Below, one piece after another: positions 1 through 51,235 of a stretch of DNA of 64,000 nt. Made by a program: the position numbers and the translations under genes. How positions within the stretch are numbered: position 1 is the stretch's first letter; every line of letters starts with the position of its first letter. The stretch comes from Escherichia coli. GTDB lineage: Bacteria > Pseudomonadota > Gammaproteobacteria > Enterobacterales > Enterobacteriaceae. The stretch lies in the NCBI RefSeq assembly GCF_030013205.1, contig NZ_CP122648.1. One strand, given 5' to 3'. Under the pieces are notes generated by a model. That model was not told where the DNA came from, ran no database searches, and was given only the letters and a program-made list of their open reading frames with translations.

Positions 1-569
1 CTGTCGGTAGCCTGACGCAGGCTGTCATCCGGGCTGGTCACGCTATACAGATATTTTTCCGGATTGGTGACGCGGTACTGCACGTTCATCTCAACGCGCA
101 CTACGTTCTCGTCCGACGTCAGCATCACACCAGAAGCGGCCAGTTCACGCACGGCTTCCACGTTCACCGGTTTGACTTCGTCGATAAACGTCGGTTTCCA
201 GTTCAGACCCGGCTCAACCAGATGGCTGAATTTACCAAAGCGTGTTACCACGCCACGTTCGGCTTCTTTAATGGTATAGAAACCACTGGCCGCCCAGATA
301 ATGACAATCGCTGCCGCTGCGATGGTAACGACACGACCGCCAAGCTGCGGGCGCGGGCCTTGCGATGAACTGCCACCGCCAGATCCGGTGCCTTTACCGC
401 CGCCCAGACCACCGAGCTTTTTGCTCAGTTTGCGGAAGATATCATCTAAATCAGGTGGCCCTTGATCGCGACCGCCTTTGTTTCCATTTCCCTCAGAGTT
501 GCCGCCAGGTTTGCTGCTTCCCCACGGGTCGCGGTCTTGTCCGTTATTACCGGGCTGATTCCACGCCAT
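1..569 (-). CDS. hflK: HflK, FtsH protease modulator (N-terminal part; gene runs off window start)
   Basis: Minus-strand ATG at 569-567; translation begins MAWNQPGNNGQDRDPWGSSKPGG with Gly/Ser-rich linker typical of HflK; sits about 85 bp downstream of hflX as in the hfq-hflX-hflK operon. Confidence 0.9.
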   Translation of the reverse strand, partial: MAWNQPGNNGQDRDPWGSSKPGGNSEGNGNKGGRDQGPPDLDDIFRKLSKKLGGLGGGKGTGSGGGSSSQGPRPQLGGRVVTIAAAAIVIIWAASGFYTIKEAERGVVTRFGKFSHLVEPGLNWKPTFIDEVKPVNVEAVRELAASGVMLTSDENVVRVEMNVQYRVTNPEKYLYSVTSPDDSLRQATD

Positions 570-653
570 GTTTGTGCTCCATATTTGTTATGCGGTGATC
601 CCTGTTGTCTTTCGACGCCAGAGGATAGACTCCACGCTTCAGACGCTACGCCG

Positions 654-1934
654 TTAGATCAAGTAATCGATCAACGCCGGTTCTTGTTTACAGAGGCGAC
701 GCCAGTCAACGATCGGCATACGAACTTGCAGACTTACGCTGCCGTCCTCCTCCATCCACTCTTTTTCTATTGCCTGAAGCTGATAAAAACGACTTCTCAG
801 ACGCCCTTCCTGCGGTGGCAGACGCAATGTATGCTGCGCCACCTCGCCGGAAAGCCGCTCCGTCAAAGCCTGAAAAAGCTGTGGTATCCCCGCTCCGGTC
901 TGTGCGGAAAGCCAGACACGGATCGGTTTGTTCTCTTCGTCCCGATCAATACGCGGTTCGAAATCTTCCAGCATATCGATCTTGTTCATCACCAGCAGGG
1001 TTGGGATCTCGTGAGCGTCGATCTCTTCAAGAACCGTATTTACCGCTTCGATGTTTTCTTGTACACGCACATCCGCCGCATCAATGACGTGCAGCAGCAA
1101 TGTGGCTTGCCGCGTCTCTTGTAACGTGGCTTTAAATGCCGCCACCAGATCGTGCGGCAGGTGGCGAATAAACCCTACGGTATCAGCCAACACGGTTTCA
1201 CCGACATCTGCGACGTCAATACGCCGCAACGTCGGGTCGAGGGTGGCAAACAACTGGTCTGCCGCGTAGACCCGCGCTTCGGTGATGCGATTGAAAAGGG
1301 TAGATTTACCGGCGTTGGTATATCCCACCAGCGAAACAGTAGGAACGTCGGCTTTGATACGCGATTGCCGCCCCTGCTCACGCTGCTTTTCAACTCTTTC
1401 CAGGCGCGACTGTATCTGCACGATGCGATTACGCAACAAACGACGGTCGGTTTCGAGCTGGGTTTCACCCGGACCACGCAAACCTATCCCGCCTTTCTGT
1501 CTTTCAAGGTGGGTCCAGCCACGCACCAGGCGCGTAGCCAGATGGCGCAGCTGCGCCAGCTCAACCTGCAACTTACCCTCATGGGTACGCGCACGTTGGG
1601 CGAAAATATCTAAAATAAGGCCGGTGCGGTCGATGACACGACACTCGCACAAACGCTCCAGGTTACGCTCTTGCGCCGGACTCAGGGCATGGTCAAAAAG
1701 AACGACCGAAGCACCCGTCGCTTTGACAGCTTCCGCAATTTCAACTGCTTTACCTTCACCTACAAAATACTTTGGGTGCGGCGCTTTACGGCTACCGGTA
1801 ATCACCTGCAATGCTTCGACACCGGCGGAAGAGACCAGAGATTCAAACTCCTGGAGGTCTTCCATATCTTTGTCTTGCGTAAAATAGATGTGTACCAGTA
1901 CCGCCTGCTCACCAGCATCATAACGGTCAAACAA
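654..1934 (-). CDS. hflX: GTPase HflX
   Basis: 426-aa ORF; G1 motif [10 protein letters not shown]3 DTVGF, NKID; position between hfq and hflK. Confidence 0.95.
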
Positions 1935-2010
1935 GCGTATAACCCTCTAAATAGATCAGCGGGGAACGCAGGATCGCTGGCTCCCCGTGTAAAAAAAACA
2001 GCCCGAAACC

Positions 2011-2331
<321 letters not shown>

Positions 2332-2404
2332 TTATATGCTTATTTGTACTTTGAACCTTTCGATTCTGAAAAAATTGCGCACGATACGTCTCAATTGTAC
2401 ACAT

Positions 2405-3355
2405 TCAGCCTGCGATAGCACCAACAACCTGTAATACTTCGTCACGCGCTTGTTCTGGTTTTTCACTGTCAAGCCAGTGAACCCCTTCCCAACCACGCAG
2501 CCAGGTTATCTGCCGCTTCGCCAACTGTCTCGTGGCGCAAACACCTCGATAAACCATTTCATCGTATGAGATTTCGCCTTCAAGGTAAGACCACATCTGG
2601 CGATAACCCACGCAACGAATGGAAGGCAAGTCCGTATGCAAATCTCCTCGGGCAAAAAGCGCCCGGACTTCTGCTTCAAAACCTGAAGCCAACATCTGAT
2701 GAAAACGCTGCTCAATTCGTTGATGGAGCAGTTCACGGCTCGCCGGGGCGATGGCGAACTGATGCACCTGATACGGTAGAGCGTCTCCTGACGTTTGCGT
2801 CAGTTCCGTTAAAGTTTTACCCGAAATGAAAAAAACTTCCAGTGCCCGGGAAAGCCTTTGTGGATCATTTGGATGAATCCTTGCTGCCGCAACCGGATCG
2901 ATCTCCTGAAGTTGACGATGCAATGACTCCCAACCTTGCTCTGCCGCCTGTTGCTCAATTCTGGCCCGCACTTCCGGGTCTGCCGACGGTAGCGGCGACA
3001 ACCCTTCCAGCAATGCCTTGAAATACAACATCGTACCGCCCACTAACAGTGGGATCCGCCCCGCCGCGGTGATATCGGCCATTTCCGCCAGCGCATCGCG
3101 GCGAAAATCAGCAGCCGAGTAAGCCTGCGACGGATCGCGAATATCCAGCAATCGGTGCGGCGCGGCGAGTAACTCTTCAGCGTTCGGCTTCGCCGTCCCG
3201 ATATCCATCCCTTTGTAAATAAGGGCAGAATCAACGCTTATCAACTCTACTGGTAAAATTTTACGCAGCTCAATGGCTAACGCCGTTTTACCGGAGGCCG
3301 TCGGCCCCATCAAAAAAATCGCCTTAGGCAGGCTCGCCTTACTGATATCACTCAT
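2405..3355 (-). CDS. miaA: tRNA dimethylallyltransferase MiaA
   Basis: 316-aa ORF with P-loop GPTASGKT; overlaps 3' end of mutL by 8 nt as in the mutL-miaA-hfq operon. Confidence 0.95.
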
Positions 3356-36390: not shown

Positions 36391-36729
36391 ATGCTTGATG
36401 AAAAAAGTTCGAATACCGCGTCTGTCGTGGTGCTATGTACGGCACCGGATGAAGCGACAGCCCAGGATTTAGCCGCCAAAGTGCTGGCGGAAAAACTGGC
36501 GGCCTGCGCGACCTTGATCCCCGGCGCTACCTCTCTCTATTACTGGGAAGGTAAGCTGGAGCAAGAATACGAAGTGCAGATGATTTTAAAAACTACCGTA
36601 TCTCACCAGCAGGCACTGCTGGAATGCCTGAAGTCTCATCATCCATATCAAACCCCGGAACTTCTGGTTTTACCTGTTACACACGGAGACACAGATTACC
36701 TCTCATGGCTCAACGCATCTTTACGCTGA
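36391..36729 (+). CDS. cutA: divalent-cation tolerance protein CutA
   Basis: 112 aa from [28 protein letters not shown]; overlaps dsbD start. Confidence 0.9.
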
Positions 36730-38402
36730 TCCTGCTACTTTGCAGCACTTCCGTTTTTGCCGGATTATTCGACGCGCCGGGACGTTCACAATTTGTCCCC
36801 GCGGATCAAGCCTTTGCTTTTGATTTTCAGCAAAACCAACATGACCTGAATCTGACCTGGCAGATCAAAGACGGTTACTACCTCTACCGTAAACAGATCC
36901 GCATTACGCCGGAACACGCGAAAATTGCCGACGTGCAGCTGCCGCAAGGCGTCTGGCATGAAGATGAGTTTTACGGCAAAAGCGAGATTTACCGCGATCG
37001 GCTGACGCTTCCCGTCACCATCAACCAGGCGAGTGCGGGAGCGACGTTAACTATCACCTACCAGGGCTGTGCTGATGCCGGTTTCTGTTATCCGCCAGAA
37101 ACCAAAACCGTTCCGTTAAGCGAAGTGGTCGCCAACAACGCAGCGTCACAGCCTGTGTCTGTTCCGCAGCAAGAGCAGCCCACCGCGCAATTGCCCTTTT
37201 CCGCGCTCTGGGCGTTGTTGATCGGTATTGGTATCGCCTTTACGCCATGCGTGCTGCCAATGTACCCACTGATTTCTGGTATCGTGCTGGGCGGTAAACA
37301 GCGGCTCTCCACTGCCAGAGCATTGTTGCTGACCTTTATTTATGTGCAGGGGATGGCGCTGACTTACACGGCACTGGGTCTGGTGGTTGCCGCCGCAGGG
37401 TTACAGTTCCAGGCGGCGCTACAGCACCCATACGTGCTCATTGGCCTCGCTATCGTCTTTACCTTGCTGGCGATGTCAATGTTTGGCTTGTTTACTCTGC
37501 AACTCCCCTCTTCGCTGCAAACACGTCTCACGCTGATGAGCAATCGCCAACAGGGCGGCTCACCTGGCGGTGTGTTTGTTATGGGGGCGATTGCCGGACT
37601 GATCTGTTCACCATGCACCACCGCACCGCTTAGCGCGATTCTGCTGTATATCGCCCAAAGCGGGAACATGTGGCTGGGGGGCGGCACGCTTTATCTCTAT
37701 GCGTTGGGCATGGGCCTGCCGCTGATGCTAATTACCGTCTTTGGTAACCGCTTGCTGCCGAAAAGCGGCCCGTGGATGGAACAAGTCAAAACCGCGTTTG
37801 GTTTTGTGATCCTCGCACTGCCGGTCTTCCTGCTGGAGCGAGTGATTGGTGATATATGGGGATTACGCTTGTGGTCGGCGCTTGGTGTCGCATTCTTTGG
37901 CTGGGCCTTTATCACCAGCCTACAGGCCAAACGCGGCTGGATGCGCGTGGTGCAAATAATCCTGCTGGCAGCGGCATTGGTTAGCGTGCGCCCACTTCAG
38001 GATTGGGCATTTGGTGCGACGCATACCGCGCAAACTCAGACGCATCTCAACTTTACACAAATCAAAACGGTAGATGAGTTAAATCAGGCGCTCGTTGAAG
38101 CCAAAGGCAAACCAGTGATGTTAGATCTCTATGCCGACTGGTGCGTCGCCTGTAAAGAGTTTGAGAAATACACCTTCAGCGACCCGCAGGTGCAAAAAGC
38201 GTTAGCAGACACGGTATTACTTCAGGCCAACGTCACTGCCAACGACGCACAAGATGTGGCGCTGTTAAAGCATCTTAATGTCCTTGGCCTACCGACAATT
38301 CTCTTTTTTGACGGACAAGGCCAGGAGCATCCACAAGCACGCGTCACGGGCTTTATGGATGCTGAAACCTTCAGCGCACATTTGCGCGATCGCCAACCGT
38401 GA
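36705..38402 (+). CDS. dsbD: thiol:disulfide interchange protein DsbD
   Basis: 565 aa from ATG at 36705 ([19 protein letters not shown]); central TM domain, C-terminal thioredoxin-like CVAC motif. Confidence 0.93.
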
Positions 38403-38438
38403 ACGACACTTGCAGTGGGAAAGACGGAGGAAAATAGC

Positions 38439-39014
38439 GTGCAACGTGAAGATGTACTGGGAGAAGCCCTGAAATTATTAGAATTACAAGGGATTGCCAA
38501 CACCACGCTGGAGATGGTTGCTGAACGTGTGGATTATCCACTGGACGAGCTACGCCGCTTCTGGCCAGACAAAGAGGCAATCCTCTACGATGCGCTGCGT
38601 TATCTTAGCCAACAGATAGATGTCTGGCGTCGTCAGCTGATGCTGGACGAAACGCAAACCGCCGAACAAAAGTTGCTGGCACGTTATCAGGCGTTATCGG
38701 AGTGCGTTAAAAACAACCGCTATCCGGGCTGTCTGTTTATCGCTGCCTGTACGTTTTATCCCGATCCTGGCCACCCTATTCATCAACTGGCCGATCAGCA
38801 AAAAAGCGCGGCCTACGATTTCACCCACGAACTGTTAACCACACTGGAAGTTGACGATCCGGCGATGGTAGCAAAGCAGATGGAACTGGTGCTGGAAGGC
38901 TGTTTAAGCCGAATGCTGGTGAATCGTAGCCAGGCGGATGTCGACACCGCACATCGGCTGGCGGAAGATATCCTGCGCTTCGCCCGCTGCCGCCAGGGTG
39001 GTGCTTTGACCTGA
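38439..39014 (+). CDS. yjdC: TetR-family transcriptional regulator YjdC
   Basis: 191 aa from GTG at 38439 ([32 protein letters not shown]-terminal HTH). Confidence 0.85.
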
Positions 39015-39120
39015 CAGAAACACAGAAAAGAAGCGATTTGCCGCAATCTTAAGCAGTTGAATCGCTTTTACTGAAATTAGGTTGACGAGATGTGCAGATT
39101 ACGGTTTAATGCGCCCCGTT

Positions 39121-39196
39121 GCCCGGATAGCTCAGTCGGTAGAGCAGGGGATTGAAAATCCCCGTGTCCTTGGTTCGATTCCGAGTCCGGGCACCA
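39121..39196 (+). tRNA. pheU: tRNA-Phe (GAA)
   Basis: GCCCGGATAGCTCAGTCGGTAGAGCAGGGGATTGAAAATCCCCGTGTCCTTGGTTCGATTCCGAGTCCGGGCACCA, 76 nt with GAA anticodon and CCA end. Confidence 0.97.
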
Positions 39197-39209
39197 AATT
39201 CATATCAAC

Positions 39210-39234
39210 GGACCTCCACGGAGGTCCGTTTTTC
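39210..39234 (+). terminator. pheU intrinsic terminator
   Basis: ggacctcc/ggaggtcc hairpin followed by GTTTTT immediately after the tRNA. Confidence 0.7.
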
Positions 39235-39393
39235 GTTTCAGAACACCATGATTTAAGTGTTCTTCCTCCAAATCAATTCTACCGAACTCAACCAAATTCT
39301 CCCCACATCAACCTCATTGTGTGGGTATAATTGCGGGTATACCCCAGTTCGACAGAATTTATACCCTCTTTAACGCATTCAGAAGGCTGAACT

Positions 39394-40656
39394 ATGGCAC
39401 TGACTGACGCAAAAATCCGGGCTGCAAAGCCCACTGACAAGGCTTATAAACTCACTGACGGGGCCGGCATGTTCCTGCTGGTTCATCCTAATGGTTCCCG
39501 TTACTGGCGTCTCCGCTATCGTATTCTGGGTAAGGAGAAGACTCTGGCACTTGGTGTGTATCCAGAAGTTTCTCTCTCCGAAGCTCGTACAAAACGGGAT
39601 GAGGCCCGAAAACTGATTTCAGAGGGGATTGACCCTTGCGAACAGAAAAGAGCTAAAAAAGTTGTCCCTGATTTACAGCTCTCTTTTGAACATATTGCAC
39701 GACGCTGGCATGCCAGTAATAAACAATGGGCACAATCACACAGCGATAAAGTACTCAAAAGCCTCGAGACACACGTTTTCCCCTTTATCGGCAACCGGGA
39801 TATCACAACACTCAGTACCCCGGACCTGCTTATCCCTGTTCGTGCTGCAGAAGCTAAACAAATTTATGAAATCGCCAGTCGTCTGCAGCAAAGAATATCT
39901 GCTGTAATGCGTTATGCCGTACAGTCTGGCATCATCAGATATAACCCGGCTCTGGATATGGCTGGTGCATTGACCACGGTAAAACGCCAGCATCGCCCTG
40001 CACTGGATCTTTCACGCCTGCCTGAACTTCTGTCGCGTATTGACGGTTATAAAGGCCAGCCTGTCACCCGACTGGCAGTTATGCTGAATTTACTGGTTTT
40101 TATTCGTTCCAGTGAACTCAGATACGCCCGCTGGTCTGAAATTGATATTGACAATGCCATGTGGACTATTCCAGCCGAACGCGAACCTCTGCCTGGCGTA
40201 AAATTCTCACACCGGGGCTCCAAGATGCGAACACCACATCTTGTGCCACTCAGCAAACAGGCTGTAGCCATACTGGCAGAACTACAGACATGGGCTGGTG
40301 AAAATGGTCTGATCTTTACGGGAGCACATGACCCGCATAAACCAATCAGTGAAAATACTGTAAATAAAGCCCTGAGGGTGATGGGGTATGACACAACCCA
40401 GGATGTCTGTGGCCATGGATTCCGTGCGATGGCATGTAGTGCGCTGATCGAATCAGGTTTGTGGTCCCGCGATGCTGTTGAACGTCAGATGAGCCATCAG
40501 GAACGTAACGGTGTACGCGCTGCGTATATCCATAAAGCCGAACATCTGGAAGAACGCCGGCTGATGCTACAGTGGTGGGCAGATTTTCTGAATGCGAACA
40601 GAGAGAAATGTATCAGTCCGTTTGATTATGCAAAGATCAACAATCCATTAAAATAG
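39394..40656 (+). CDS. P4-type tyrosine integrase
   Basis: 420-aa ORF MALTDAKIRAAKPTDKAYKLTDGAGMFLLVHPNGSRYWRLRYR with C-terminal catalytic region (HGFRAMA, Y in RAAYIH); 200 bp downstream of a tRNA gene; SD GAAGG. Confidence 0.92.
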   Translation: MALTDAKIRAAKPTDKAYKLTDGAGMFLLVHPNGSRYWRLRYRILGKEKTLALGVYPEVSLSEARTKRDEARKLISEGIDPCEQKRAKKVVPDLQLSFEHIARRWHASNKQWAQSHSDKVLKSLETHVFPFIGNRDITTLSTPDLLIPVRAAEAKQIYEIASRLQQRISAVMRYAVQSGIIRYNPALDMAGALTTVKRQHRPALDLSRLPELLSRIDGYKGQPVTRLAVMLNLLVFIRSSELRYARWSEIDIDNAMWTIPAEREPLPGVKFSHRGSKMRTPHLVPLSKQAVAILAELQTWAGENGLIFTGAHDPHKPISENTVNKALRVMGYDTTQDVCGHGFRAMACSALIESGLWSRDAVERQMSHQERNGVRAAYIHKAEHLEERRLMLQWWADFLNANREKCISPFDYAKINNPLK

Positions 40657-40819
40657 TAATAATCCCCGGGCAAAATGCCCGGGGTACTTTGAATGACTAT
40701 TTTTCTTTGGGCGTGATGAAGAAGATTGATGGTAAGACAAATTACTCCCGACTCTTACGTATTTTCATGGAAAGAAATCCCCCAATATCATCCATCGGGA
40801 TCGAGTAATAACCTGTAAT

Positions 40820-41005
40820 ATGCTGCAGGTTCCGACAGCGGCGGCAAATATGCAGCACATATTGTGCTCACTGATCGGCACCTGCCGTCTGAACAATGCG
40901 GAGTCAGAAAAATTGCTGCATTACGTCACAGATCATATGCAGGACTGGTCGGCAAACCGGGTACGCGATCTGTTGCCCTGGAAAGTTGATCTGACCTCTC
41001 AGTAA
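40820..41005 (+). pseudogene. IS66-family transposase C-terminal fragment
   Basis: 61-aa ORF LIGTCRLNNAESEKLLHYVTDHMQDWSANRVRDLLPW, paralogous to the C-terminus of the fragment at 41730-42251. Confidence 0.6.
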
Positions 41006-41069
41006 ATATCAATACGGTTCTGGCGAGCCGCTTACAATCGAACTGGGATACAGGGAGATAAAACAGACG

Positions 41070-41429
41070 ATGCAACTGAGCAGGCTGACGCTGAGAAGTA
41101 AAAAGCCGGAGCTTGTGGAGCAAGAGCTGTGGGGTGTCTTACTGGCTTATAATCTGGTGAGATATCAGATGATTAAAATGGCGGAACATCTGAAAGGTTA
41201 CTGGCCGAATCAACTGAGTTTCTCAGAATCATGCGGAATGGTGATGAGAATGCTGATGACATTGCAGGGCGCTTCACCGGGACATATACCGGAGCTGATG
41301 CGCGATCTTGCAAGTATGGGACAACTTGTGAAATTACCGACAATAAGGGAAAGGGCCTTCCCGAGAGTGGTAAAGGAGAGGCCCTGGAAATACCCCACAG
41401 CCCCGAAAAAGAGCCAGTCAGTTGCTTAA
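41070..41429 (+). pseudogene. transposase C-terminal fragment, IS4-like (family uncertain)
   Basis: 119-aa ORF with EQELWGVLLAYNLVRYQM motif recalled from IS4-family transposase C-termini. Confidence 0.45.
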
Positions 41430-41753
41430 CTGACTGGCATTAGGCCGCCGGGGGCGTTTTTTTACCACCGGGACTTCGGACATAACGGTGTTTTCAGTAA
41501 GTACGACAGGTACTGTGGAGGCACTCCCGTAAAGACGGGCATCAAGTTCCCGCTCCGACATACCTGCGGGCAGAGGCCATGAAAGGCCAGCTTTTCGGAA
41601 GCGCACGAACATACCACAAACTGTTGATTTTGGTACGCCCAGGCGACGTCCGGCCACAATCCGTGGTAAATGTTCTTCAAAGTGAAGACGTAAAGCTTCA
41701 GTGATCCAGGTCCGGTATTCCATACGATAGTGTCCATTAAAAATGATGGACAT
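41418..41753 (-). pseudogene. transposase N-terminal HTH fragment (family not assigned)
   Basis: 111-aa ORF with helix-turn-helix-like segment RRLGVPKSTVCGMFVRFRKAG; truncated. Confidence 0.35.
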
Positions 41754-42251
41754 TATTTTTGTGGAGCCGGAGGAAACACACCAGACTGTTTAAATGAGCC
41801 GGTTACCGAAATACGCGGGTTGCCGGTGTCTGAACGCCTGGCGGTCAGGCAAATGCAGAGTAAACCGCTACTGACTTCCCTGTATAAGCTGATGCAGGAG
41901 AAAGAACACACATTATCGAAAAAATGCCGTCTGAGAGATGCGTTCCGGTATATCCGGAAGCACTGGGTTGCGTTGTGCAACTTCTGTGATGATGGTCTGG
42001 CGGAGGCGGATAATAATGCCGCGGAAAGAGCGCTTCGTGCAGTCTGTCTCGGAAAGAAAAACTTTATGTTCTTCGGCAGCGATCACGGCGGCGAGCGAGG
42101 AGCACTGTTGTACGGGCTGATCGGCACCTGCCGACTGAACGGTATCGATCCGGAAGCGTATCTGCGCCATATCCTGAGCGTACTGCCGGAATGGCCTTCC
42201 AACCGAGTTGACGAACTCCTGCCATGGAACGTAGTACTCACCAATAAATAA
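41730..42251 (+). pseudogene. IS66-family transposase (TnpC) C-terminal fragment
   Basis: 173-aa ORF ending NNAAERALRAVCLGKKNFMFFGSDHGGERGALLYGLIGTCRLNGIDPEAYLRHILSVLPEWPSNRVDELLPWN, the conserved IS66 TnpC C-terminal signature; lacks the N-terminal catalytic part. Confidence 0.7.
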
Positions 42252-42385
42252 GCGTCAATACGGCACTCCGTTAACGCTTACGTTTAAGTCATAAAGCCAT
42301 GCAGAACGCTCACCTCCCAAGATCTTGGTTTTTATAAGGTGTAATGATAATGTAAGCTAATGTTTCACATGCCAAAGGAAACACC

Positions 42386-43714
42386 ATGAGCCACAGGGAA
42401 TTGTTCAGCGAATTTCTTGAAAATTTGAATCTTGACCTCAAACAGGCAAAAAAGATCAGCTATCACTATCGAAAAATAACCAAGTCATTAAATCTTGCGT
42501 TCAGAGGAACGAGTTCCCGGGTAGCAAACCGCTTGAAAGTGGGGTCAGTAGGCAGACATACCGCAATAAAAGGCATATCCGATCTGGATATGCTTTATAT
42601 TATGCCCCCCAATCAGTATGAATATTATAACCGTAAGGATAATGGTCAGTCTGCATTGCTTACAGATGTCAGAAACATTCTGGCGGAAGAATATCCTGAC
42701 CAGACTGTGAAAAAGGACAGACTGGTTGTTCAGATCATCTTTAAAAACTTTTATGTCGAGGTTCAACCTGTATTCAGACAGGATGATGACAGCTTTAAAT
42801 TCCCTGAAAGCTATAATGGAGGAGCATGGCGCATTACAAAACCTCTTCACGAAAAGGCGGCCATGACCGCATTTTCGCGAGATAAATCCAATAATCTGCG
42901 CAAGCTGTGTAAAATGATCAGAGCCTGGAAGAACCTGCATGGCGTCAATATGGGTGGCTTACTGATAGACACACTAGCGTATCGCTTTCTTTCATCAACA
43001 TCAGATTATGACAATACCGGAAATGGCAGCCTGGGAGCCCTCGCCAGAGACTTTTTTGAATATCTGTCAAATGAGGAGAGAAAGGAAAGGTATCTCGCGT
43101 TAGGCAGTAATCAGCATGTACGTGTTAAATCTCCCTGGTTTGGCCGGGCAGCGAAACACGCGTATGAATTATGTTGTGATGCCTTAGACGCTGAGGGGGC
43201 TGCCAGTGAAAATGACCGCTGGCGCAAAGTGTTCGGACGAGCCTTCCCCAGACGTAAAGTGGGTATTATGGAAGCCCGTCTTGGTCTGGAATCGCATGCG
43301 GCAGATGCTGTTCCCTGGACCGATACCGAAGAGTTTATAGAGGATAAATATCCGGTGGATATCAGGTACTCACTCAACCTTGACTGTACCGTAACCCAGG
43401 ATGGTTTCCCTCCCAGAAGCCTGAGGGAGATGCTTACCAGAAGATTCCGCCTCTCCGCTCGAAAATCTCTCCTTTTCCGGGCAGACTTGACAGAAATGGA
43501 GGCAGAGGAACCCTACACCGTTATGTGGAAGGTACTGAACGTGGGTGACGAAGCACGCAGAAGAAATATGATCCGGGGACAAATCGTTTCGGACGGCGGC
43601 TACTGTACGAAGAAAGAAACTACCGACTTCCGCGGAGATCACATGGTAGAATGCTATGTGATAAAAAATGAGGTTGTGGTTGCCCGGGCCCAGATTGAAG
43701 TTCCCATAAGCTGA
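42386..43714 (+). CDS. polymerase-beta-superfamily nucleotidyltransferase, SMODS/CD-NTase-like (candidate signalling nucleotide or oligonucleotide synthase)
   Basis: 442-aa ORF with SD AAAGGAA; NTase signature G-S-x10-D-L-D (GSVGRHTAIKGISDLD) near the N-terminus; stop overlaps the SD of the next gene. Confidence 0.6.
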   Translation: MSHRELFSEFLENLNLDLKQAKKISYHYRKITKSLNLAFRGTSSRVANRLKVGSVGRHTAIKGISDLDMLYIMPPNQYEYYNRKDNGQSALLTDVRNILAEEYPDQTVKKDRLVVQIIFKNFYVEVQPVFRQDDDSFKFPESYNGGAWRITKPLHEKAAMTAFSRDKSNNLRKLCKMIRAWKNLHGVNMGGLLIDTLAYRFLSSTSDYDNTGNGSLGALARDFFEYLSNEERKERYLALGSNQHVRVKSPWFGRAAKHAYELCCDALDAEGAASENDRWRKVFGRAFPRRKVGIMEARLGLESHAADAVPWTDTEEFIEDKYPVDIRYSLNLDCTVTQDGFPPRSLREMLTRRFRLSARKSLLFRADLTEMEAEEPYTVMWKVLNVGDEARRRNMIRGQIVSDGGYCTKKETTDFRGDHMVECYVIKNEVVVARAQIEVPIS

Positions 43715-43721
43715 GGTTTTT

Positions 43722-44297
43722 ATGACGCAATCAGAGATGCTGAAATTAATCGCCCGACATGGTTATAACGTTGGATTTGGCGCTAAGAAAAACTTTGCCA
43801 CCTATGATCTGATTTGTAAGGCATCCGGTTGGATTAGCTTTATTTCTCTTGCTGTCGGTGTGTTCGCCCTTTTTATTCCTGAGCTGGCCACAAACGTCAT
43901 TTCCGCGATATTAATTATATTTGGTGTTGCTACAATGTACATTCAGTTTTATGACTCGGAAAAGCAGAGTTATGAAAGTGCGGGGATTGAGCAGACCAAA
44001 ATTTTTAATGAACTTGAAGTCATCTACCGCAACGTAAAAAGCGATGCAAACTTTGACTATCAGCGTACACAACAATCCATCGACGCTATCATGTCCCGGT
44101 TTTACGGCACGGTCATCAGCAAACAGATCTTCGGAAGTAACTGGTACGCACATTATAAATTTTACTGTGAATTTGAAAAAGCATGGGTTGAAGAAGAGCT
44201 GAACCTGACACTGAAGGACAAAATCCCGCTTTCGCTCTGCTTTCTCGCCGGTCTGGCGATCATTTTTACTATAGCTGTCATCTGGAAAACGCCCTGA
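43722..44297 (+). CDS. 2-TM membrane protein, SLATT-like candidate effector
   Basis: 191-aa ORF starting 8 nt after the NTase stop; two adjacent hydrophobic helices (ISFISLAVGVFALFIPELATNVISAILIIFGVATMYI) plus a C-terminal hydrophobic segment. Confidence 0.6.
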   Translation: MTQSEMLKLIARHGYNVGFGAKKNFATYDLICKASGWISFISLAVGVFALFIPELATNVISAILIIFGVATMYIQFYDSEKQSYESAGIEQTKIFNELEVIYRNVKSDANFDYQRTQQSIDAIMSRFYGTVISKQIFGSNWYAHYKFYCEFEKAWVEEELNLTLKDKIPLSLCFLAGLAIIFTIAVIWKTP

Positions 44298-44848
44298 TGC
44301 TGCAGCCAATGAAAAATTCAGCAAGCTGACTGTCAAATATGCGATGTATAGCCGGTATCACCATCCAGTGTACGTTCTATAAGGGGGGCGCTTGGAAAAC
44401 GGGTAGAGTCAAGATGTGGCGCGGTAATTTTACAGGTCAGGCATATCTGTTGCCGCCTCTTTCGATTGGCGGTGCCTTACTGTCCTGACCATAAATCCTG
44501 TTTCCACACCCCGCTCATCGAAGCGGACATGCGCTTCTAACACATCCGGCTCTCGGACAGAATCATGCCTTCGCCCACGGAAACCTCTGCGGGAGCTTCG
44601 GTGCATATTTTCATGGAAGGGGATCACCCAATAACTTCCATCGAGATCGGGTCATAACGGCCAATCCGTGATCGAATAGAGCGGAATACGCACTCTGACG
44701 AACTGCTTACATTTAAACTAATTACAAACTATATAAATCCGCCTTGCTCATTCACAGGGTAGATATATTCTTACTTTTAATTTTATGTGTAATTAACTGA
44801 TGACGAAAAATGAATTGAACTGTAAATGCATATCTAAGTTTTTCATTC

Positions 44849-45574
44849 TTATGATGTACATAATACCTTAAAATTATCAACTAGCTGAGCATTAACCTCC
44901 ATCTGACTAATCCCCCATAATGCGGCTAACTGTTTCTCTGCAATCCCACTATCCCATGGCATTAGTGGGTCATTACGAAACTTAGCAAATGGCCCATCTG
45001 TTTCTGTAAGAATGCGTGATTTGGGTATTTTCAAAACTAAGGCCTTACCCTTTATTGTATCGAGCATAGCAGGCCCCACTGAGAACCAGCATCCTAAATC
45101 AATTGCCCTTTCAAGCTGCTTAGGTGTTCCAGTGAACCAATGCAATATTGCCACCCCATCGATATTTTCAATCTCATCAAGCACCGCTGATGCACTTCCC
45201 CGACTATGGATAGTCATAATCTTGCCACCAGCCCGATTTACACTGTTGAGAATGTGTCGGAACACTTTCAATTGAATATCCCAATGTTCTTTAAATCCCT
45301 GTCCACCATCAAGCCCTATTTCCCCTACATACTTAGTTTCCGAAAGCAATGAATCAAACAGGTCTAACTCATGCGATCTTTGATGCGCGATTTGAGGATG
45401 TAGCCCAAGAGCAGTTCGGATTCGTTGACTTTCTTTAGCCAATAAAGAAGTACCATGCCATGCTTTAGGTGTTGTTGTCACCGACAGAATATAAGTCCCT
45501 CGACGTTTACTTTCTTCAGCCACGAGGTCTGGCCGAGGATATAAGTCTAGATGACAGTGCATATCGATGCTCAT
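44849..45574 (-). CDS. qatD: QatD-like TatD-family metal-dependent hydrolase
   Basis: 241-aa ORF beginning MSIDMHCHLDLYP (TatD HxH motif); ATGA overlap with upstream qatC. Confidence 0.8.
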   Translation of the reverse strand: MSIDMHCHLDLYPRPDLVAEESKRRGTYILSVTTTPKAWHGTSLLAKESQRIRTALGLHPQIAHQRSHELDLFDSLLSETKYVGEIGLDGGQGFKEHWDIQLKVFRHILNSVNRAGGKIMTIHSRGSASAVLDEIENIDGVAILHWFTGTPKQLERAIDLGCWFSVGPAMLDTIKGKALVLKIPKSRILTETDGPFAKFRNDPLMPWDSGIAEKQLAALWGISQMEVNAQLVDNFKVLCTS

Positions 45575-46890
45575 ACTATGTTCTCACTCAGTAAATAGCT
45601 TTCAACCTCATCCAGGCCATCCTTAAATACTTGCTTGAAATTATCAAATTCTGCCGTAGGCAAAGGGCCACTTTTGGCAATCCATGTACCTATTTTCAAA
45701 GTCGATTTCTGCGTGATCGCAATCCTAAGGGCGATCAGGTCGTCCCTGCGATCTATTTCATTCATTACTTTAGCTAAGGACTGGAAAATATATTCAACAT
45801 CTCTACTAATTCCCCCTGCATGAAGTGATGCTCGTCGAATGATACACGGTATACATACCCCACATTGCTGCCCCATTCGTTTCCAATGACTGCAGGATAC
45901 TGTACTTTCCACAATTTTAGATAAGAGCTGCTTATTTGAACATTCGGAGATCATTTTTCCTTTTGTCTTAAACTGATATGGATTGATTATTTGACAAGAA
46001 ATACCGAGCGCATCAAAGATCTTTTGTATGCTCGTAATAAAATGTGGATGTGTTGTTCGTGTGCTCAGCGAACCTATCCGCCGTGGAGTAAGTGGTGCAT
46101 TTAATGAGATAAATCCATTTTCAGGTACGAACAAATCAATCTTTTCTTGTTGAGATATCTCTTGTACGGCACAAGCACCTACGGCCGCAAAGGCAAGAAA
46201 ATTGAGGCTACGAGTTCGCATCGTAATATCAGTCACGCCTTGATAAATGTGTGGGTCAGCATTAATCTCAAAGCGCGAAAATTGGCCACTTAATTTTTCA
46301 GCAATCTGATCTTGACGAGACTTATCCCCCTTATAAGCATGACTAACCAAAAGTGGAGCGCGCCCTGCAGCCAGAAGATCTATTGCACCAATAGCTGAAT
46401 CCAGACCTCCTGAAAATAGGCTGACACAGTCAAGCCCTTTTAGCTTAATCAGACGATGCCTTGAATGCTGGCTATAAGGCTCTGGCGGTGCATAACCATC
46501 GTCACAAAATTCGAAATCCCAGATGTCTCCACTAAGAAAATGCAAAGCACTCTCAAGTTCTTTCTTTAGACTAATCCATCTGGATGGTTCATGAAGGGGG
46601 AGTCGTAACGACAATTGGCGGGTCCAACCATCCTCGGAACTTTCACGCTGAACGAAAGTATCTGCTGCAGTTACTGCTAATGCAACACTCAGAAAATCCA
46701 TGACCTTAGCTGGAAGCTGTACTCCCAAACGTCTGATCCGATCAATCGCAGGATTCCCGATAACAGATATATCTCCGCGCCTCTGACCACTTAATCCATA
46801 TAGCTGAACAGGTAACACTTTCTCACTTGCTGGCGGCAAATGGTGATGTTTATGATGGAAAACTAATTGTGTCACTGGTATGCCTCCCAT
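45571..46890 (-). CDS. qatC: QatC-like QueC-family PP-loop ATPase
   Basis: 439-aa ORF with PP-loop SGGLDS (DCVSLFSGGLDSAIGAIDLL); overlaps qatB by 19 nt. Confidence 0.8.
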   Translation of the reverse strand: MGGIPVTQLVFHHKHHHLPPASEKVLPVQLYGLSGQRRGDISVIGNPAIDRIRRLGVQLPAKVMDFLSVALAVTAADTFVQRESSEDGWTRQLSLRLPLHEPSRWISLKKELESALHFLSGDIWDFEFCDDGYAPPEPYSQHSRHRLIKLKGLDCVSLFSGGLDSAIGAIDLLAAGRAPLLVSHAYKGDKSRQDQIAEKLSGQFSRFEINADPHIYQGVTDITMRTRSLNFLAFAAVGACAVQEISQQEKIDLFVPENGFISLNAPLTPRRIGSLSTRTTHPHFITSIQKIFDALGISCQIINPYQFKTKGKMISECSNKQLLSKIVESTVSCSHWKRMGQQCGVCIPCIIRRASLHAGGISRDVEYIFQSLAKVMNEIDRRDDLIALRIAITQKSTLKIGTWIAKSGPLPTAEFDNFKQVFKDGLDEVESYLLSENIV

Positions 46891-47624: not shown

Positions 47625-49408
47625 TAAGCGTCCTTATTCCATTGTTCATCTTTTAATGCTGCAGTCATCCACGCTGGTCGTTTCATCCCCAACTGTAATT
47701 CCTGTAGATAACGAATTAATATGCTGGCTGCATCTGTTGAGTAGCGGGCCAACAGACATGCGCCGGAAAAGCCTCTGGGCTTACGATCCCAATCTGATAC
47801 CTGCCGTAACTGGTTAATTAAACCTTCCATTACAGGTATTTGCTCCTCACGAGGAAGTGCTTTCAAAAGGTTTTCTGCTGTAGGAGAACTAGTGTTTTTC
47901 AATTCAATTAGTGCATTTAGTACTTCCCGTCCAGATGGCGATAAACCAACCACATATGCACCTATTGGCATAGTTTCTCGGGACAGATATATGGCGGCCC
48001 TTAAGTCAATCCCACCAAGACGAGGTTCAAGTTGGGCCCATTGACTGATGAAAGATTTAGTCGTTGGACTATCAGTCCATGTCTTTGGTGCATCAGTAGG
48101 TATTTGACCGCCATTATCGTCAAGCTGTTTAAGTATCTGGGGAACACCTTGTTCAATATCCACGAGATGATATAAATCAGCGGTGCCATCCACTCCAACA
48201 CAGCGTTCAAAAATTACTAGCTTAGTAATAATTGCTTCATCCAAAGGCATTGCTCGTCGCTTCGCAATTTGAGATCGCATTTTCACAACATTCAACAAGC
48301 GTTTAACGATCCTGGGATTACCATGAATAATTGGAGAGTTGGCTAAAATGGGAGCAATACGGTCAGCACGCGCAAACGCCAGCGCGAGGTTGCTATCATC
48401 CGCTTCACCAGTCATTTTTAAGGCCTCCTGACGTGAGATTGGTTCATCTTTCCAGGATTGCTGTAACGCCTTCTCTAAGCCCTCACGGAGCATAGTTATT
48501 TTTTCGCCTTCTAAGCCATGTTCAATGGCATAAAGCATGAACAGATACGAACGGATCTCACGGACCCCAGCCTTAGGCACCCGAATAGGAACCTGGATTA
48601 GCTTATCCAGATAATCTATTTGATGGCGCTGTGATGCCCCTTTGAAGTAATCAGCCACAGAAGAGCGAATCATGTCCTCATCTGCTGCAATAATAAAGGC
48701 TGTATTAGTCAAGAAAAGGAATAGCCTGATAGCTTCAAGTGTATGGATAGCATTGGCAGGGAGACAGCGGTCTAGGTTATCTATTACCACAATGAGTGGC
48801 TTTCCAAGTTCTTCTAGAATTTCCCCATATTCCTTACGAAAGGCATCAATCTGCTGAGGGGGGCTTTTTTTTGTTTGTGGTTTAATCAAACCACAAGCAG
48901 TTTCTTTACCTTCTTTAGCTATATTGCCTAAAGCCTCATACTCTTCCTGACTCTGGATGCCATCGGTGATATTTCTTAATGCACCAATCCCCCTAGAAAG
49001 CAAACCGCCAGTAGGTAATCCTGCCATTAAAGCTGTACCCTCAGCTAGTAATCCCATAGCTCTAAAACCATCAACTCGACTAAGGAGTCTCTTAGTTTTT
49101 GATATAAGGGTAGAATTACCTTCAGCAGCTTTTGTCAATTCTGTAGCGATGACTTCAAGAAGTGCGGCACGGGCGTCGTCGTACCCCTGATAGAGCCAAG
49201 AGTCAAAATTGATAACAATCCAATCTTTGTCGTCTTGCTCAAGTTTTTGCTCTATCAGTTTTAACAGAGAGGATTTACCTGCCCCCCAGTTTCCAAAAAT
49301 TCCGATAGATACTGGTAACATATCTTTCGTGGTAAGTACATCCACGGCTAACTGAGATACTTCACCAAAATTTAGGTAGTCTTCTGATGACTCTTTGTCT
49401 GACCACAT
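47624..49408 (-). CDS. qatA: QatA-like KAP-family P-loop NTPase
   Basis: 594-aa ORF with Walker A GNWGAGKSS near the N-terminus and Walker B-like VVIDNLDRC; SD AAGGA upstream of ATG at 49408. Confidence 0.8.
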   Translation of the reverse strand: MWSDKESSEDYLNFGEVSQLAVDVLTTKDMLPVSIGIFGNWGAGKSSLLKLIEQKLEQDDKDWIVINFDSWLYQGYDDARAALLEVIATELTKAAEGNSTLISKTKRLLSRVDGFRAMGLLAEGTALMAGLPTGGLLSRGIGALRNITDGIQSQEEYEALGNIAKEGKETACGLIKPQTKKSPPQQIDAFRKEYGEILEELGKPLIVVIDNLDRCLPANAIHTLEAIRLFLFLTNTAFIIAADEDMIRSSVADYFKGASQRHQIDYLDKLIQVPIRVPKAGVREIRSYLFMLYAIEHGLEGEKITMLREGLEKALQQSWKDEPISRQEALKMTGEADDSNLALAFARADRIAPILANSPIIHGNPRIVKRLLNVVKMRSQIAKRRAMPLDEAIITKLVIFERCVGVDGTADLYHLVDIEQGVPQILKQLDDNGGQIPTDAPKTWTDSPTTKSFISQWAQLEPRLGGIDLRAAIYLSRETMPIGAYVVGLSPSGREVLNALIELKNTSSPTAENLLKALPREEQIPVMEGLINQLRQVSDWDRKPRGFSGACLLARYSTDAASILIRYLQELQLGMKRPAWMTAALKDEQWNKDA

Positions 49409-49539
49409 TTTTATATCCTTTACATCACCAATTTTTACGTCATTGAGTAAACTACAGGTTTGATAAAACCAACTCTGTTCAGGTGGGCAAATTCAGTGTA
49501 CCACTTCATCAATAATCCAATATGATGACTGCTATAGAT

Positions 49540-50742
49540 CTATTTTTTAAAGAATGAAATAAGCTTTCTTATCCCAGTCCATATTTTCCTATCAGAATCC
49601 GAAGGGTTAAATTCGCTCTTGTCAAAATCAGCAACCTCAGCAACCTCAGCAACCTCAGCAACCTCAGCAACCTCAGCAACCTCAGCAACCTCAGCAACCT
49701 CAGCAACCTCAGCAACCTCAGCAACCTCAGCAACCTCAGCAACCTCAGCAACCTCAGCAAGGTTTATTCTATTTTGATGAGCTGTCAAATGTTCTTTGTT
49801 AATTTCATCTCTAATTAGCTGTTCTTTTTCTATGCTGTAGTTTTTGTCATTATAAGTCACATCAAAATCATCTAAGAAAACGATATAAATCAATTTAAAA
49901 AAACTAGTCTTAAATAAAAAACTATCGCACTCATCAGGAAAACCAAAAAAGAAAACATTAAGATATTTGGTTGCTTTGCGCTTGTCTTTTAGTCCATTAT
50001 AATACTTATTTGCTTCTGCTCTTTGTTTTTCATACTCACTACAGAAAAAACTCTTTTTACTTTCATCCCATTCTGAAGCATCAATTTCAAGTTTATATGC
50101 TTGTTTGGTACCTTTCTTTCTGGCTAAAAAAGTAAGGTAATATCTATTCGAATTTATCTCCAGCCGTATATTAGATTGAATTTTACCAAAATAAATTGCT
50201 GGCTTATTATATCTAATTCCTTCTTTATAGATGATTAGTTGAAAAGTATCTTTATAAGTTCTAACTCCATAAGGGGGAATTGATAATGGTTCATAGAGAT
50301 TATCTCCATTAATGTAGTAGTCTACTACCGGTTTGATGCTTGAAGATGACACAGGGTGTACTTTACCTCCCAAATCTTTTTCATCATCTCGCGTCTGTTT
50401 GATAATTCTTCTGCCAGAAGAGTCGTAATTTCTTTCAGACACATCAAGTTTCAGAAGAGATATAGCTAATGCCGGTGGTGAATTATGCTTTTTATTATTC
50501 TTTGAGTTACACTTATTTTTACTCTTAGGATCATGAATCTTACATCCCGGCCTATGAGTCTCTTTATATCGAAAGTATGATTGATTTAAATTTATTTCTT
50601 TGAAGCTACATGGAGTAGCGGGTATCCTACATTTGTCATACGGGCATTCAAAAGTGGTTGTTCGTATATAAAGATCATCCATTTCCCGAAGATCATGACC
50701 ATGAACAATTTCACCACTAACAGAATCTCTTGCTATTGTCAC
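49540..50742 (-). CDS. uncharacterised cysteine-rich protein with C-terminal (AEV)n repeat
   Basis: 400-aa ORF from GTG at 50742 preceded by a perfect SD (AAGGAG, 5-nt spacer); N-terminal CPYDKC...C...C cysteine cluster; AT-rich; ends 131 bp upstream of qatA on the same strand. Confidence 0.7.
   Translation of the reverse strand: MTIARDSVSGEIVHGHDLREMDDLYIRTTTFECPYDKCRIPATPCSFKEINLNQSYFRYKETHRPGCKIHDPKSKNKCNSKNNKKHNSPPALAISLLKLDVSERNYDSSGRRIIKQTRDDEKDLGGKVHPVSSSSIKPVVDYYINGDNLYEPLSIPPYGVRTYKDTFQLIIYKEGIRYNKPAIYFGKIQSNIRLEINSNRYYLTFLARKKGTKQAYKLEIDASEWDESKKSFFCSEYEKQRAEANKYYNGLKDKRKATKYLNVFFFGFPDECDSFLFKTSFFKLIYIVFLDDFDVTYNDKNYSIEKEQLIRDEINKEHLTAHQNRINLAEVAEVAEVAEVAEVAEVAEVAEVAEVAEVAEVAEVAEVAEVADFDKSEFNPSDSDRKIWTGIRKLISFFKK
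49629..49760. repeat. perfect 9-bp tandem repeat, about 14.7 copies (unit AGCAACCTC on + strand)
   Basis: Uninterrupted identical units read directly; in-frame within the 400-aa ORF, encoding Ala-Glu-Val repeats. Confidence 0.97.
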
Positions 50743-50980
50743 ACAATCTCCTTTGATAAAAATTAATAGATTCTAATTTCATACCAAGGCTAATTTAAAT
50801 AAAGGCTATTTAAGAGAAAAACAAGTCAGCCTGACAGACATATCCCCTCCCATGGCAATATGCCGCTATTTCGCGTTTTTTTTCACGCCATAATGCGTTT
50901 CAAGGTAGCGAATATCTTCGATTGCCCATGGTGTGCGCATTCTTTTGGGTTTATTTTCCATTACCATGTTTTATCAGCCA

Positions 50981-51235
50981 TCATGGCAGCCTCTCCGGTT
51001 TGCCAGCGTGTTCCACCTGATAACGATTAATCAGCTGATTCAGTGCCATTTCAGCCTGTTTTTGCTGCTGTTCACTGCCATTCTGGTTACGGGCTTCATC
51101 ATAGCGACGTAACTGCTCTTCCGCCGGGATATGCCGGTTAAAAGCCTGCATGATGCCAAACACCTCTGTTTTCAGTTCACTGACCGTCATGTATTTTCCC
51201 CGCTGTTCATCCAGACGGTTCAGGCGCTCAGCCAT
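50981..51235 (-). CDS. hypothetical small protein
   Basis: 84-aa ORF, Gln/Glu-rich helical; no family recognised. Confidence 0.4.
   Translation of the reverse strand: MAERLNRLDEQRGKYMTVSELKTEVFGIMQAFNRHIPAEEQLRRYDEARNQNGSEQQQKQAEMALNQLINRYQVEHAGKPERLP

Follow-up and report, generated by a model that had tools for sequence, protein, structure and literature searches.

What lies between the integrase of a P4-type genomic island and the defense genes behind it, and did the insertion sequences (IS) found there bring those genes in? We addressed this question in a 64,000-nucleotide stretch of an Escherichia coli chromosome (hereafter the window), in which a tRNA-Phe island carries a CBASS and a Qat system. 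The landmarks on either side of the IS-bearing segment are the following.

36624–38402: dsbD, preceding tRNA-Phe
38415–39014: yjdC/dicD, preceding tRNA-Phe
39121–39196, + strand: tRNA-Phe (GAA), the island attachment site
39394–40656, + strand: intact P4-type tyrosine integrase, 420 aa
40664–40684: GC-rich hairpin CCCCGGGCAAAATGCCCGGGG, just past the integrase stop codon
42282–42385: native spacer of 104 bp, from the end of the last IS fragment (F4, below) to the CBASS start codon
42386–44297, + strand: two-gene CBASS, with a SMODS/AGS-C cyclase (42386–43714) and a SLATT_6 two-transmembrane effector (43722–44297)
44849–46890, − strand: qatD and qatC of a Qat system

The tRNA gene was located by ARAGORN, Rfam, and the annotation that RefSeq gives the K_EC180 locus (100% identical), and because dsbD and yjdC/dicD lie upstream of it, we assign the locus to pheU. 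The integrase (Pfam Arm-DNA-bind_3, Phage_int_M, and Phage_integrase; NCBIfam PRK09692) is an arm-binding-domain tyrosine integrase placed directly 3′ of a tRNA gene, the arrangement of a P4-type island; in other genomes it is found likewise at pheV. Positions 38700–41100 of the window are 100% identical to porcine isolates (e.g., K_EC180) and to several ETEC and O139:H1 strains. A 23-mer from the tRNA-Phe 3′ end, with up to three mismatches allowed, occurs once in the 64-kb window and no attR copy was found there; the island presumably reaches past base 64000. The spacer downstream of the integrase (40657–40755) is not IS-derived: its bases 40666–40750 share 77–80% identity with sequence annotated "none" in other genomes, and it includes the hairpin, a putative integrase terminator that our scan scored as terminator-like on the minus strand only.

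On the far side, the CBASS assignment follows from a cyclase with an adjacent effector (PADLOC Cyclase, E 9.4e-177; 2TM effector, E 1.8e-82; Pfam SMODS and AGS_C for the cyclase, SLATT_6 for the effector). QatD and QatC were likewise identified with PADLOC (E 6e-97 and E 2e-140). The two genes upstream of qatC, called only "hypothetical protein" and KAP family P-loop NTPase by RefSeq, match Pfam QatB and KAP_NTPase and are thus QatB and QatA. Further island genes lie beyond the Qat system.

The ~1.5 kb between these landmarks (40756–42281) contains only truncated IS, in five fragments from five different elements. We regard it as very probably a non-functional stack of five IS remnants, built by nested transposition and then cut by at least one deletion. 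To set the fragment boundaries we aligned the window, by blastn and MAFFT, with copies from other genomes that were either intact or longer than the fragments; an IS21-family piece beyond the CBASS genes is listed with the fragments.

40756–40824, + strand: F0, IS21-family left terminus TACGTATTTTCATGG..., recognizable to 40812; 40813–40824 are an unassigned 12-bp filler
40825–41035, + strand: F1, last 211 bp of an element here called IS66-A, comprising a frameshifted tnpC 3′ end and the right terminal repeat ...GAGCCGCTTAC
41036–41442, + strand: F2, IS4 nt ~1020–1426, comprising the insG 3′ part and the right inverted repeat ...CTGACTGGCATTA
41443–41806, − strand: F3, left end of an element here called IS66-B, GTAACCGGCTC... 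(begins GTAACCGG), with ~105 N-terminal tnpA codons
41807–42281, + strand: F4, last 475 bp of an ISEc43-like element, comprising the tnpC 3′ third and the right terminal repeat ...AACGCTTAC
44602–44692, + strand: 91-bp IS21-family mini-element, a left terminus (91% identity to ISEc12) fused to an ISSso4-like right terminus

All fragments share 84–99% DNA identity with annotated IS copies and match the corresponding protein families; identity at this level excludes chance matches. F0 has 84% identity over 55 nt to the left end of ISEc12 in a copy (L010) whose ends are set by the disrupted repB gene and a 5-bp duplication. F2 has 404 of 407 bases (99.3%) identical to a K-12-type IS4 insG copy (L004). 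IS4 is 1426 bp long and generates an 11–13-bp target duplication. Relative to this prototype, F2 retains the last 407 bp and the right inverted repeat and lacks the first ~1019 bp, and with them most of the transposase gene and the left repeat; its DDE transposase is not intact, and NCBIfam transpos_IS4_1 aligns over profile positions 305–332 of 332 only, the C terminus. Pfam gave no match for the ORFs of the IS4 and TnpA fragments; DNA identity and NCBIfam settled both.

The other three fragments represent three distinct lineages of the IS66 family, whose members carry tnpA-tnpB-tnpC in that order over ~2.5–2.7 kb. F1 is 89.8% identical to a tnpC 3′ end and IS end (L007), with its closest copies ISCro1-like at 88–90%; close to its 5′ end it departs from the TnpC reading frame by a frameshift, as seen both in our alignment and in the RefSeq (PGAP) annotation note. 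F3 is 97.3% and 94.5% identical to two IS66-B copies (L005 and L015) and shares 97–99% DNA identity with annotated tnpA genes; NCBIfam IS66_access_TnpA matches it with E 5.8e-29 over profile positions 1–90 of 190, the N-terminal half. F4 is 94.5–95.6% identical to intact ISEc43 (L006) and scores 132.7 bits with NCBIfam transpos_IS66; a fragment would be expected to fall short, as this one does, of the cutoff for full-length proteins (180). Terminal repeats of the 5′-GTAA(G/C)CG type stand at 42281 (F4), at 41035 (F1), and on the minus strand at 41806 (F3), and align with the ends of the intact copies L006, L007, L005, and L015.

Compared with complete IS66-family elements such as ISEc43 and ISCro1-like copies, which end in GTAAGCG... 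and ...CGCTTAC and duplicate 8 bp of target, F1, F3, and F4 match tnpC 3′ or tnpA 5′ ends at 90–97% DNA identity and keep canonical termini. They are fragments of 211, 364, and 475 bp with one end each; a complete tnpA-tnpB-tnpC unit is absent, and none is self-transposable. Each retains a single flank, and the 8-bp duplications are seen at intact relatives (ACTTATTT in L006, GAAAGGTT in L022). For the F4 element, the first 8 bp of the 104-bp spacer, GTTTAAGT, would be the surviving copy of its target duplication.

An earlier note on this DNA, made from the letters alone, had described IS debris with IS4-like and helix–turn–helix transposase pieces on both strands and two fragments ending in the IS66 TnpC C-terminal motif, none of them intact. 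The comparison with intact copies that it proposed as a check placed every fragment in a family at 84–99% DNA identity and bears out most of this description. The IS4-like piece proved to be the terminal 407 bp of IS4 (99.3% identity), the helix–turn–helix piece, on the minus strand, covers the N-terminal half of TnpA from an IS66 element (E 5.8e-29), and all elements are indeed fragmentary. ORF 40820–41005 matches Pfam DDE_Tnp_IS66_C (E 1.3e-8), and ORF 41730–42251 (173 aa) matches both DDE_Tnp_IS66 (E 1.2e-24, positions 194–283 of 284) and DDE_Tnp_IS66_C (E 8.7e-17). These ORFs are real, but their starts had been taken as fragment bounds, and homology begins at 40825 and 41807 instead; codons 1–26 of the 173-aa ORF run through the inverted end of F3. 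The note missed a fifth fragment, the IS21-family left terminus at 40756–40812 (to 40824 with the filler). Its description of the two IS66 C-terminal fragments as duplicated does not hold: F1 is ISCro1-like and F4 is ~95% identical to ISEc43, and the two, although they cover overlapping stretches of tnpC, share only 59% nucleotide and 46% amino acid identity (22 of 48 residues).

In identical sequence from other genomes, RefSeq (PGAP) already marks four of these fragments as pseudogenes of incomplete transposases. The debris is thus known and annotated, an ordinary IS graveyard at the module boundary of a known kind of island. Four ORFs here (61, 119, 111, and 173 aa) arise from reading through the fragments and should not be annotated as genes.

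The junctions record how the fragments came together. At three of the four (F1/F2, F2/F3, and F3/F4) a complete IS terminus—...GCTTAC at 41035, ...GGCATTA at 41442, and GTAACC... on the minus strand at 41806—stands against internal sequence of the right-hand neighbor, which argues for insertion of each element into the next. At F0/F1 two internal sequences are joined, which argues for a deletion. The repeated insertion and decay that the note had proposed are therefore borne out, both by these junctions and by live intermediates in other strains described below. The junctions themselves are observed; the order of events and the restriction to a single deletion follow from parsimony.

By this reasoning, an ISEc43-like IS66 element would have landed 104 bp ahead of the CBASS cyclase gene, with F4 as its surviving right end. 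IS66-B would then have inserted in the opposite orientation into the tnpC of that element, so that its left end at 41806 abuts F4. IS4 would have entered the tnpA of IS66-B at the 12-bp target AGGCCGCCGGGG, an event that may predate the arrival of IS66-B here, and IS66-A would have entered IS4 near nt 1020. Apart from this stack, there would have been an IS21-family element, or a ~90-bp miniature derivative, ~100 bp downstream of the integrase gene. One deletion, from the interior of the IS21 piece (~40812–40824) to the interior of IS66-A tnpC (40825), would finally have removed the left portions of the four nested elements together with anything between.

The same five elements might instead have been joined by IS-end-mediated adjacent deletions or one-ended rearrangements, each IS deleting outward into its neighbor. 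IS-promoted adjacent deletion also leaves an IS terminus against foreign internal sequence. Moreover, the complete stack that would have preceded the deletion was not found: Searches of 5426 complete genomes with the F1/F2 and F3/F4 junctions returned debris-bearing genomes only, with no pre-deletion intermediate for either. The three surviving termini all face one way, however, with each element intact on the right and truncated on the left. Three independent deletions would have to produce this by coincidence, whereas one leftward deletion of a nested stack suffices. Nesting is also directly seen for IS4 in IS66-B and for new IS copies within the debris. We therefore think adjacent deletion unlikely and retain nested insertion followed by deletion as the preferred account.

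The direct case is plasmid pCFSAN029787_01, where a full-length IS66-B (tnpC, tnpB, and split tnpA) has an intact IS4 inside its tnpA. The 12-bp duplication AGGCCGCCGGGG borders this IS4, whose site and relative orientation match those in the window; the uninterrupted target site is visible in L005. Thus, the target at which F2 survives as a remnant holds an intact copy on the plasmid. This arrangement is an intermediate of the kind predicted by nested insertion, and of the junctions searched F2/F3 alone yielded one. The IS66-B part of the window differs from the plasmid by 5.5% and the IS4 part by 1%, a disparity by which the shared IS4 site may reflect target preference rather than common descent.

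Newer insertions are superimposed on the old. CP101981 (L022) carries debris of the window type with an intact 2534-bp IS66-family element in F2, at 41192–41199, flanked by the 8-bp duplication GAAAGGTT, and in UFYM01000003 (L019) an IS110-family element lies inside F4, at 42062–42068. Accumulation of IS in the debris is ongoing, and the region is a harmless landing pad for new copies. A stronger reading makes the integrase–CBASS spacer a favored sink for IS elements, which would target one another at specific sites, and in which the pair of IS21-type tips may delimit a unit for CBASS exchange between islands. The same 12-bp IS66 tnpA site is used by IS4 both in chromosomal debris and on large plasmids, and unrelated IS110-family and IS3-family elements strike F4 within ~3 bp of each other, at 42062–42068. 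We offer this reading as a long shot.

Across the 5426 complete genomes, the F0/F1 region was found 60 times, F1/F2 57 times (all chromosomal), and F3/F4 55 times; F2/F3 was found 78 times, including 21 plasmid places. About 57 complete E. coli genomes carry identical debris. The SLATT–qatD spacer, taken as a proxy for the CBASS and Qat module, is present in 243 of the same genomes. Given this difference between the module (243) and F1/F2 (57) or F3/F4 (55), the junction of F4 with CBASS is the oldest, and the other debris belongs to one island lineage only.

Most of the module-bearing genomes examined, of these 243, have a different architecture, that of APEC O1. The APEC O1-type island also sits at pheU, with a different P4-type integrase allele ~14 kb away; an IS3-family element has cut its F4 to the last 218 bp (from 42064), against 475 bp in the window, and the other debris is absent. 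FUJ80154 and APEC O1-type islands nevertheless share 99.7% identity with the window across the right end of F4 and the 104-bp spacer, so the junction of an ISEc43-like right end with CBASS predates both architectures. The module thus travels with the right end of F4 and with no other piece of debris.

Could the IS elements themselves have brought CBASS and Qat into the island, whether in a composite transposon or through one-ended transposition? The earlier note thought it probable that IS activity had delivered the neighboring cargo. The persistence of the F4 end and its 104-bp spacer beside CBASS and Qat in the APEC O1 and FUJ80154 types speaks for such delivery, and two direct IS21-type termini (40756 and 44602) bracket the debris and CBASS. 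Yet the APEC O1 type likewise has a P4-type integrase at pheU, and the shared junction fits descent or recombination within one island family. Blastn with the reference elements found no second copy or end of the ISEc43-like element, IS66-A, IS66-B, or IS4 in the 64-kb window. A composite transposon was accordingly rejected: partner IS copies are absent from the window, and apart from the two IS21-type left tips no repeat brackets the cargo.

The pair of tips also counts against delivery. F0 and the mini-element at 44602–44692 form a direct repeat with 83% identity over 53 nt, both members are left ends, and neither the 40756 tip nor the 44602 tip has matching flanking duplications. Relative to the IS21 family (ISEc12, ISSso4), the two match the terminal ~57 bp on the left and ~34 bp on the right; F0 is a solo left tip, and 44602–44692 is a fusion of left and right with no evident target duplication. 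The istA and istB genes are absent, F1 starting 69 bp past the F0 terminus. Sequence of ~55 bp resembling the F0 region recurs in 2274 genomes. A group II intron or structured RNA, considered as an identity for this dispersed 55-bp repeat and for 44430–44700, was rejected: Rfam at E ≤ 1 returned tRNA only, and the repeat consists of IS21-family termini.

Delivery by IS also sits poorly with the distribution of the island head. At least 22 genomes have the window's combination of integrase, debris, and CBASS at pheU, and others have it at pheV, as expected for movement by integrase or recombination. With no bracketing IS copy in the 64 kb and only the F4 right end linked to the module, the claim of IS-mediated delivery finds no support, and we judge such delivery very unlikely. 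Because the unit lies in a P4-type tRNA-Phe island and is found at either Phe locus, pheU or pheV, we favor integrase action or homologous recombination as its vehicle.

This picture agrees with GI-pheV islands, which have been described as mosaics of modules with IS elements between them and the integrase as the sole constant gene (PMC11537424). The order here is the same as in those P4-integrase pheV/pheU islands—a tRNA-Phe integrase, then IS remnants, then a cargo module—and both Phe tRNA loci are used. The cargo differs: it is phage defense (CBASS and Qat) here, whereas virulence modules are emphasized there, and a text search of that article found neither "CBASS" nor "defense."

Judged by its truncation and variable retention in sequence (F4 spans 475 bp in the window against 218 bp in APEC O1-type islands), the debris probably has no present function. 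Partial co-option is conceivable, for instance with the 173-aa ORF or an IS end driving or regulating CBASS expression. ORF 41730–42251 is open and directed at the CBASS gene, and IS ends sometimes bear outward promoters. The ORF nevertheless starts within unrelated inverted IS sequence and is a pseudogene in RefSeq. The module is retained where F4 is reduced to 218 bp, as in the APEC O1-type lineage, or interrupted by the IS110-family element, as in L019. An outward promoter from F4 was rejected, the consensus scan showing no promoter-like site on the + strand in 41700–42386 (F4 to CBASS), and Rfam identified no RNA family in the region except tRNA. We consider co-option extremely improbable and keep to the view of the debris as probably functionless.

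Segment 40756–42281 is a boundary marker between the integrase head of the tRNA-Phe island and its defense cargo. It is a clear, fully resolved case of IS piling up at a module boundary of a tRNA-borne island, it provides a relative chronology for one E. coli lineage of CBASS and Qat defense islands, and its F1/F2 and F3/F4 junction sequences are specific markers of that lineage (55–57 of 5426 complete genomes); its wider significance is small. In ML35, the integrase and the debris are kept, other IS elements have truncated CBASS, and the cargo beyond it is different.

The IS4 element within tnpA of IS66-B, the second IS66-family element represented in the debris, occupies the same 12-bp target (AGGCCGCCGGGG) on large plasmids and in the chromosomal debris. 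This arrangement was found at 21 plasmid places, and the plasmid and chromosomal-debris copies of IS66-B differ by 5.5% despite their common IS4 target. The shared 12-bp site is compatible with an IS4 target-site preference.

Insertions and termini in the window and in loci of other genomes
L015 4640-6075 (plasmid pCFSAN029787_01): IS4 in IS66-B tnpA, compared with window 41436-41455
L022 3273-5806 (CP101981.1): intact 2534-bp IS66-family element; its site is window 41192-41199, in the IS4 fragment
L019 5239-6676 (UFYM01000003): IS110-family element in F4, the ISEc43-like IS66 3' end
L011 about 6770 (APEC O1-type islands): IS3-family end in F4, which is cut at 42064
Window 44602-44692: 91-bp left-plus-right IS21-family mini-element, with the SLATT gene on one side and qatD on the other

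Apart from the IS66-family insertion in the IS4 fragment, the debris of CP101981.1 is identical to that of the window. The inserted element shares 90% identity with ISEc43 and is accompanied by an 8-bp duplication (GAAAGGTT). F4 was struck by two unrelated IS elements, within about 3 bp of each other, in separate lineages (window 42062-42068); either a local hot spot for insertion or coincidence may account for the proximity.

A 53-nt direct repeat, 83% identical between its copies at 40760-40812 and 44606-44658, flanks the debris plus CBASS. Each copy is an IS21-family left terminus, the second lying within the mini-element. Of the 5426 genomes surveyed, 2274 contain ~55-bp pieces resembling these termini, with a median of two per genome; most of the pieces are without annotation.

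The head of the island, in which the debris is identical and the integrase nearly so, and which also carries CBASS and Qat, was compared between window 39121-46890 and loci L001, L002, and L017-L022. In at least 22 complete genomes, as in the window, it occupies pheU (dicD side); O157:H16 98-3133, ML35, and others have it at pheV (yqgA side). Its presence at both sites implies that either the head relocated from one of the two identical tRNA-Phe genes to the other or the islands recombined.

From window 42386-46890 onward, CBASS and Qat stand back to back. CBASS in this region comprises two genes, one for an AGS-C cyclase, the other for a SLATT_6 effector; for Qat, qatD and qatC were confirmed, and the upstream genes match Pfam QatB and KAP_NTPase. 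Downstream of both systems, identical genomes carry type VI secretion gene remnants (VasL and ImpA fragments). At window 49000-51000, G+C falls to 0.35-0.38, against 0.42-0.50 elsewhere in the island; the counterpart in the porcine isolate K_EC180 is annotated as a hypothetical protein. As a mechanical ORF, dsbD (window 36624-38402) spans 592 aa, compared with 565 aa in RefSeq, and the extra 27 N-terminal codons are probably an upstream extension overlapping cutA.
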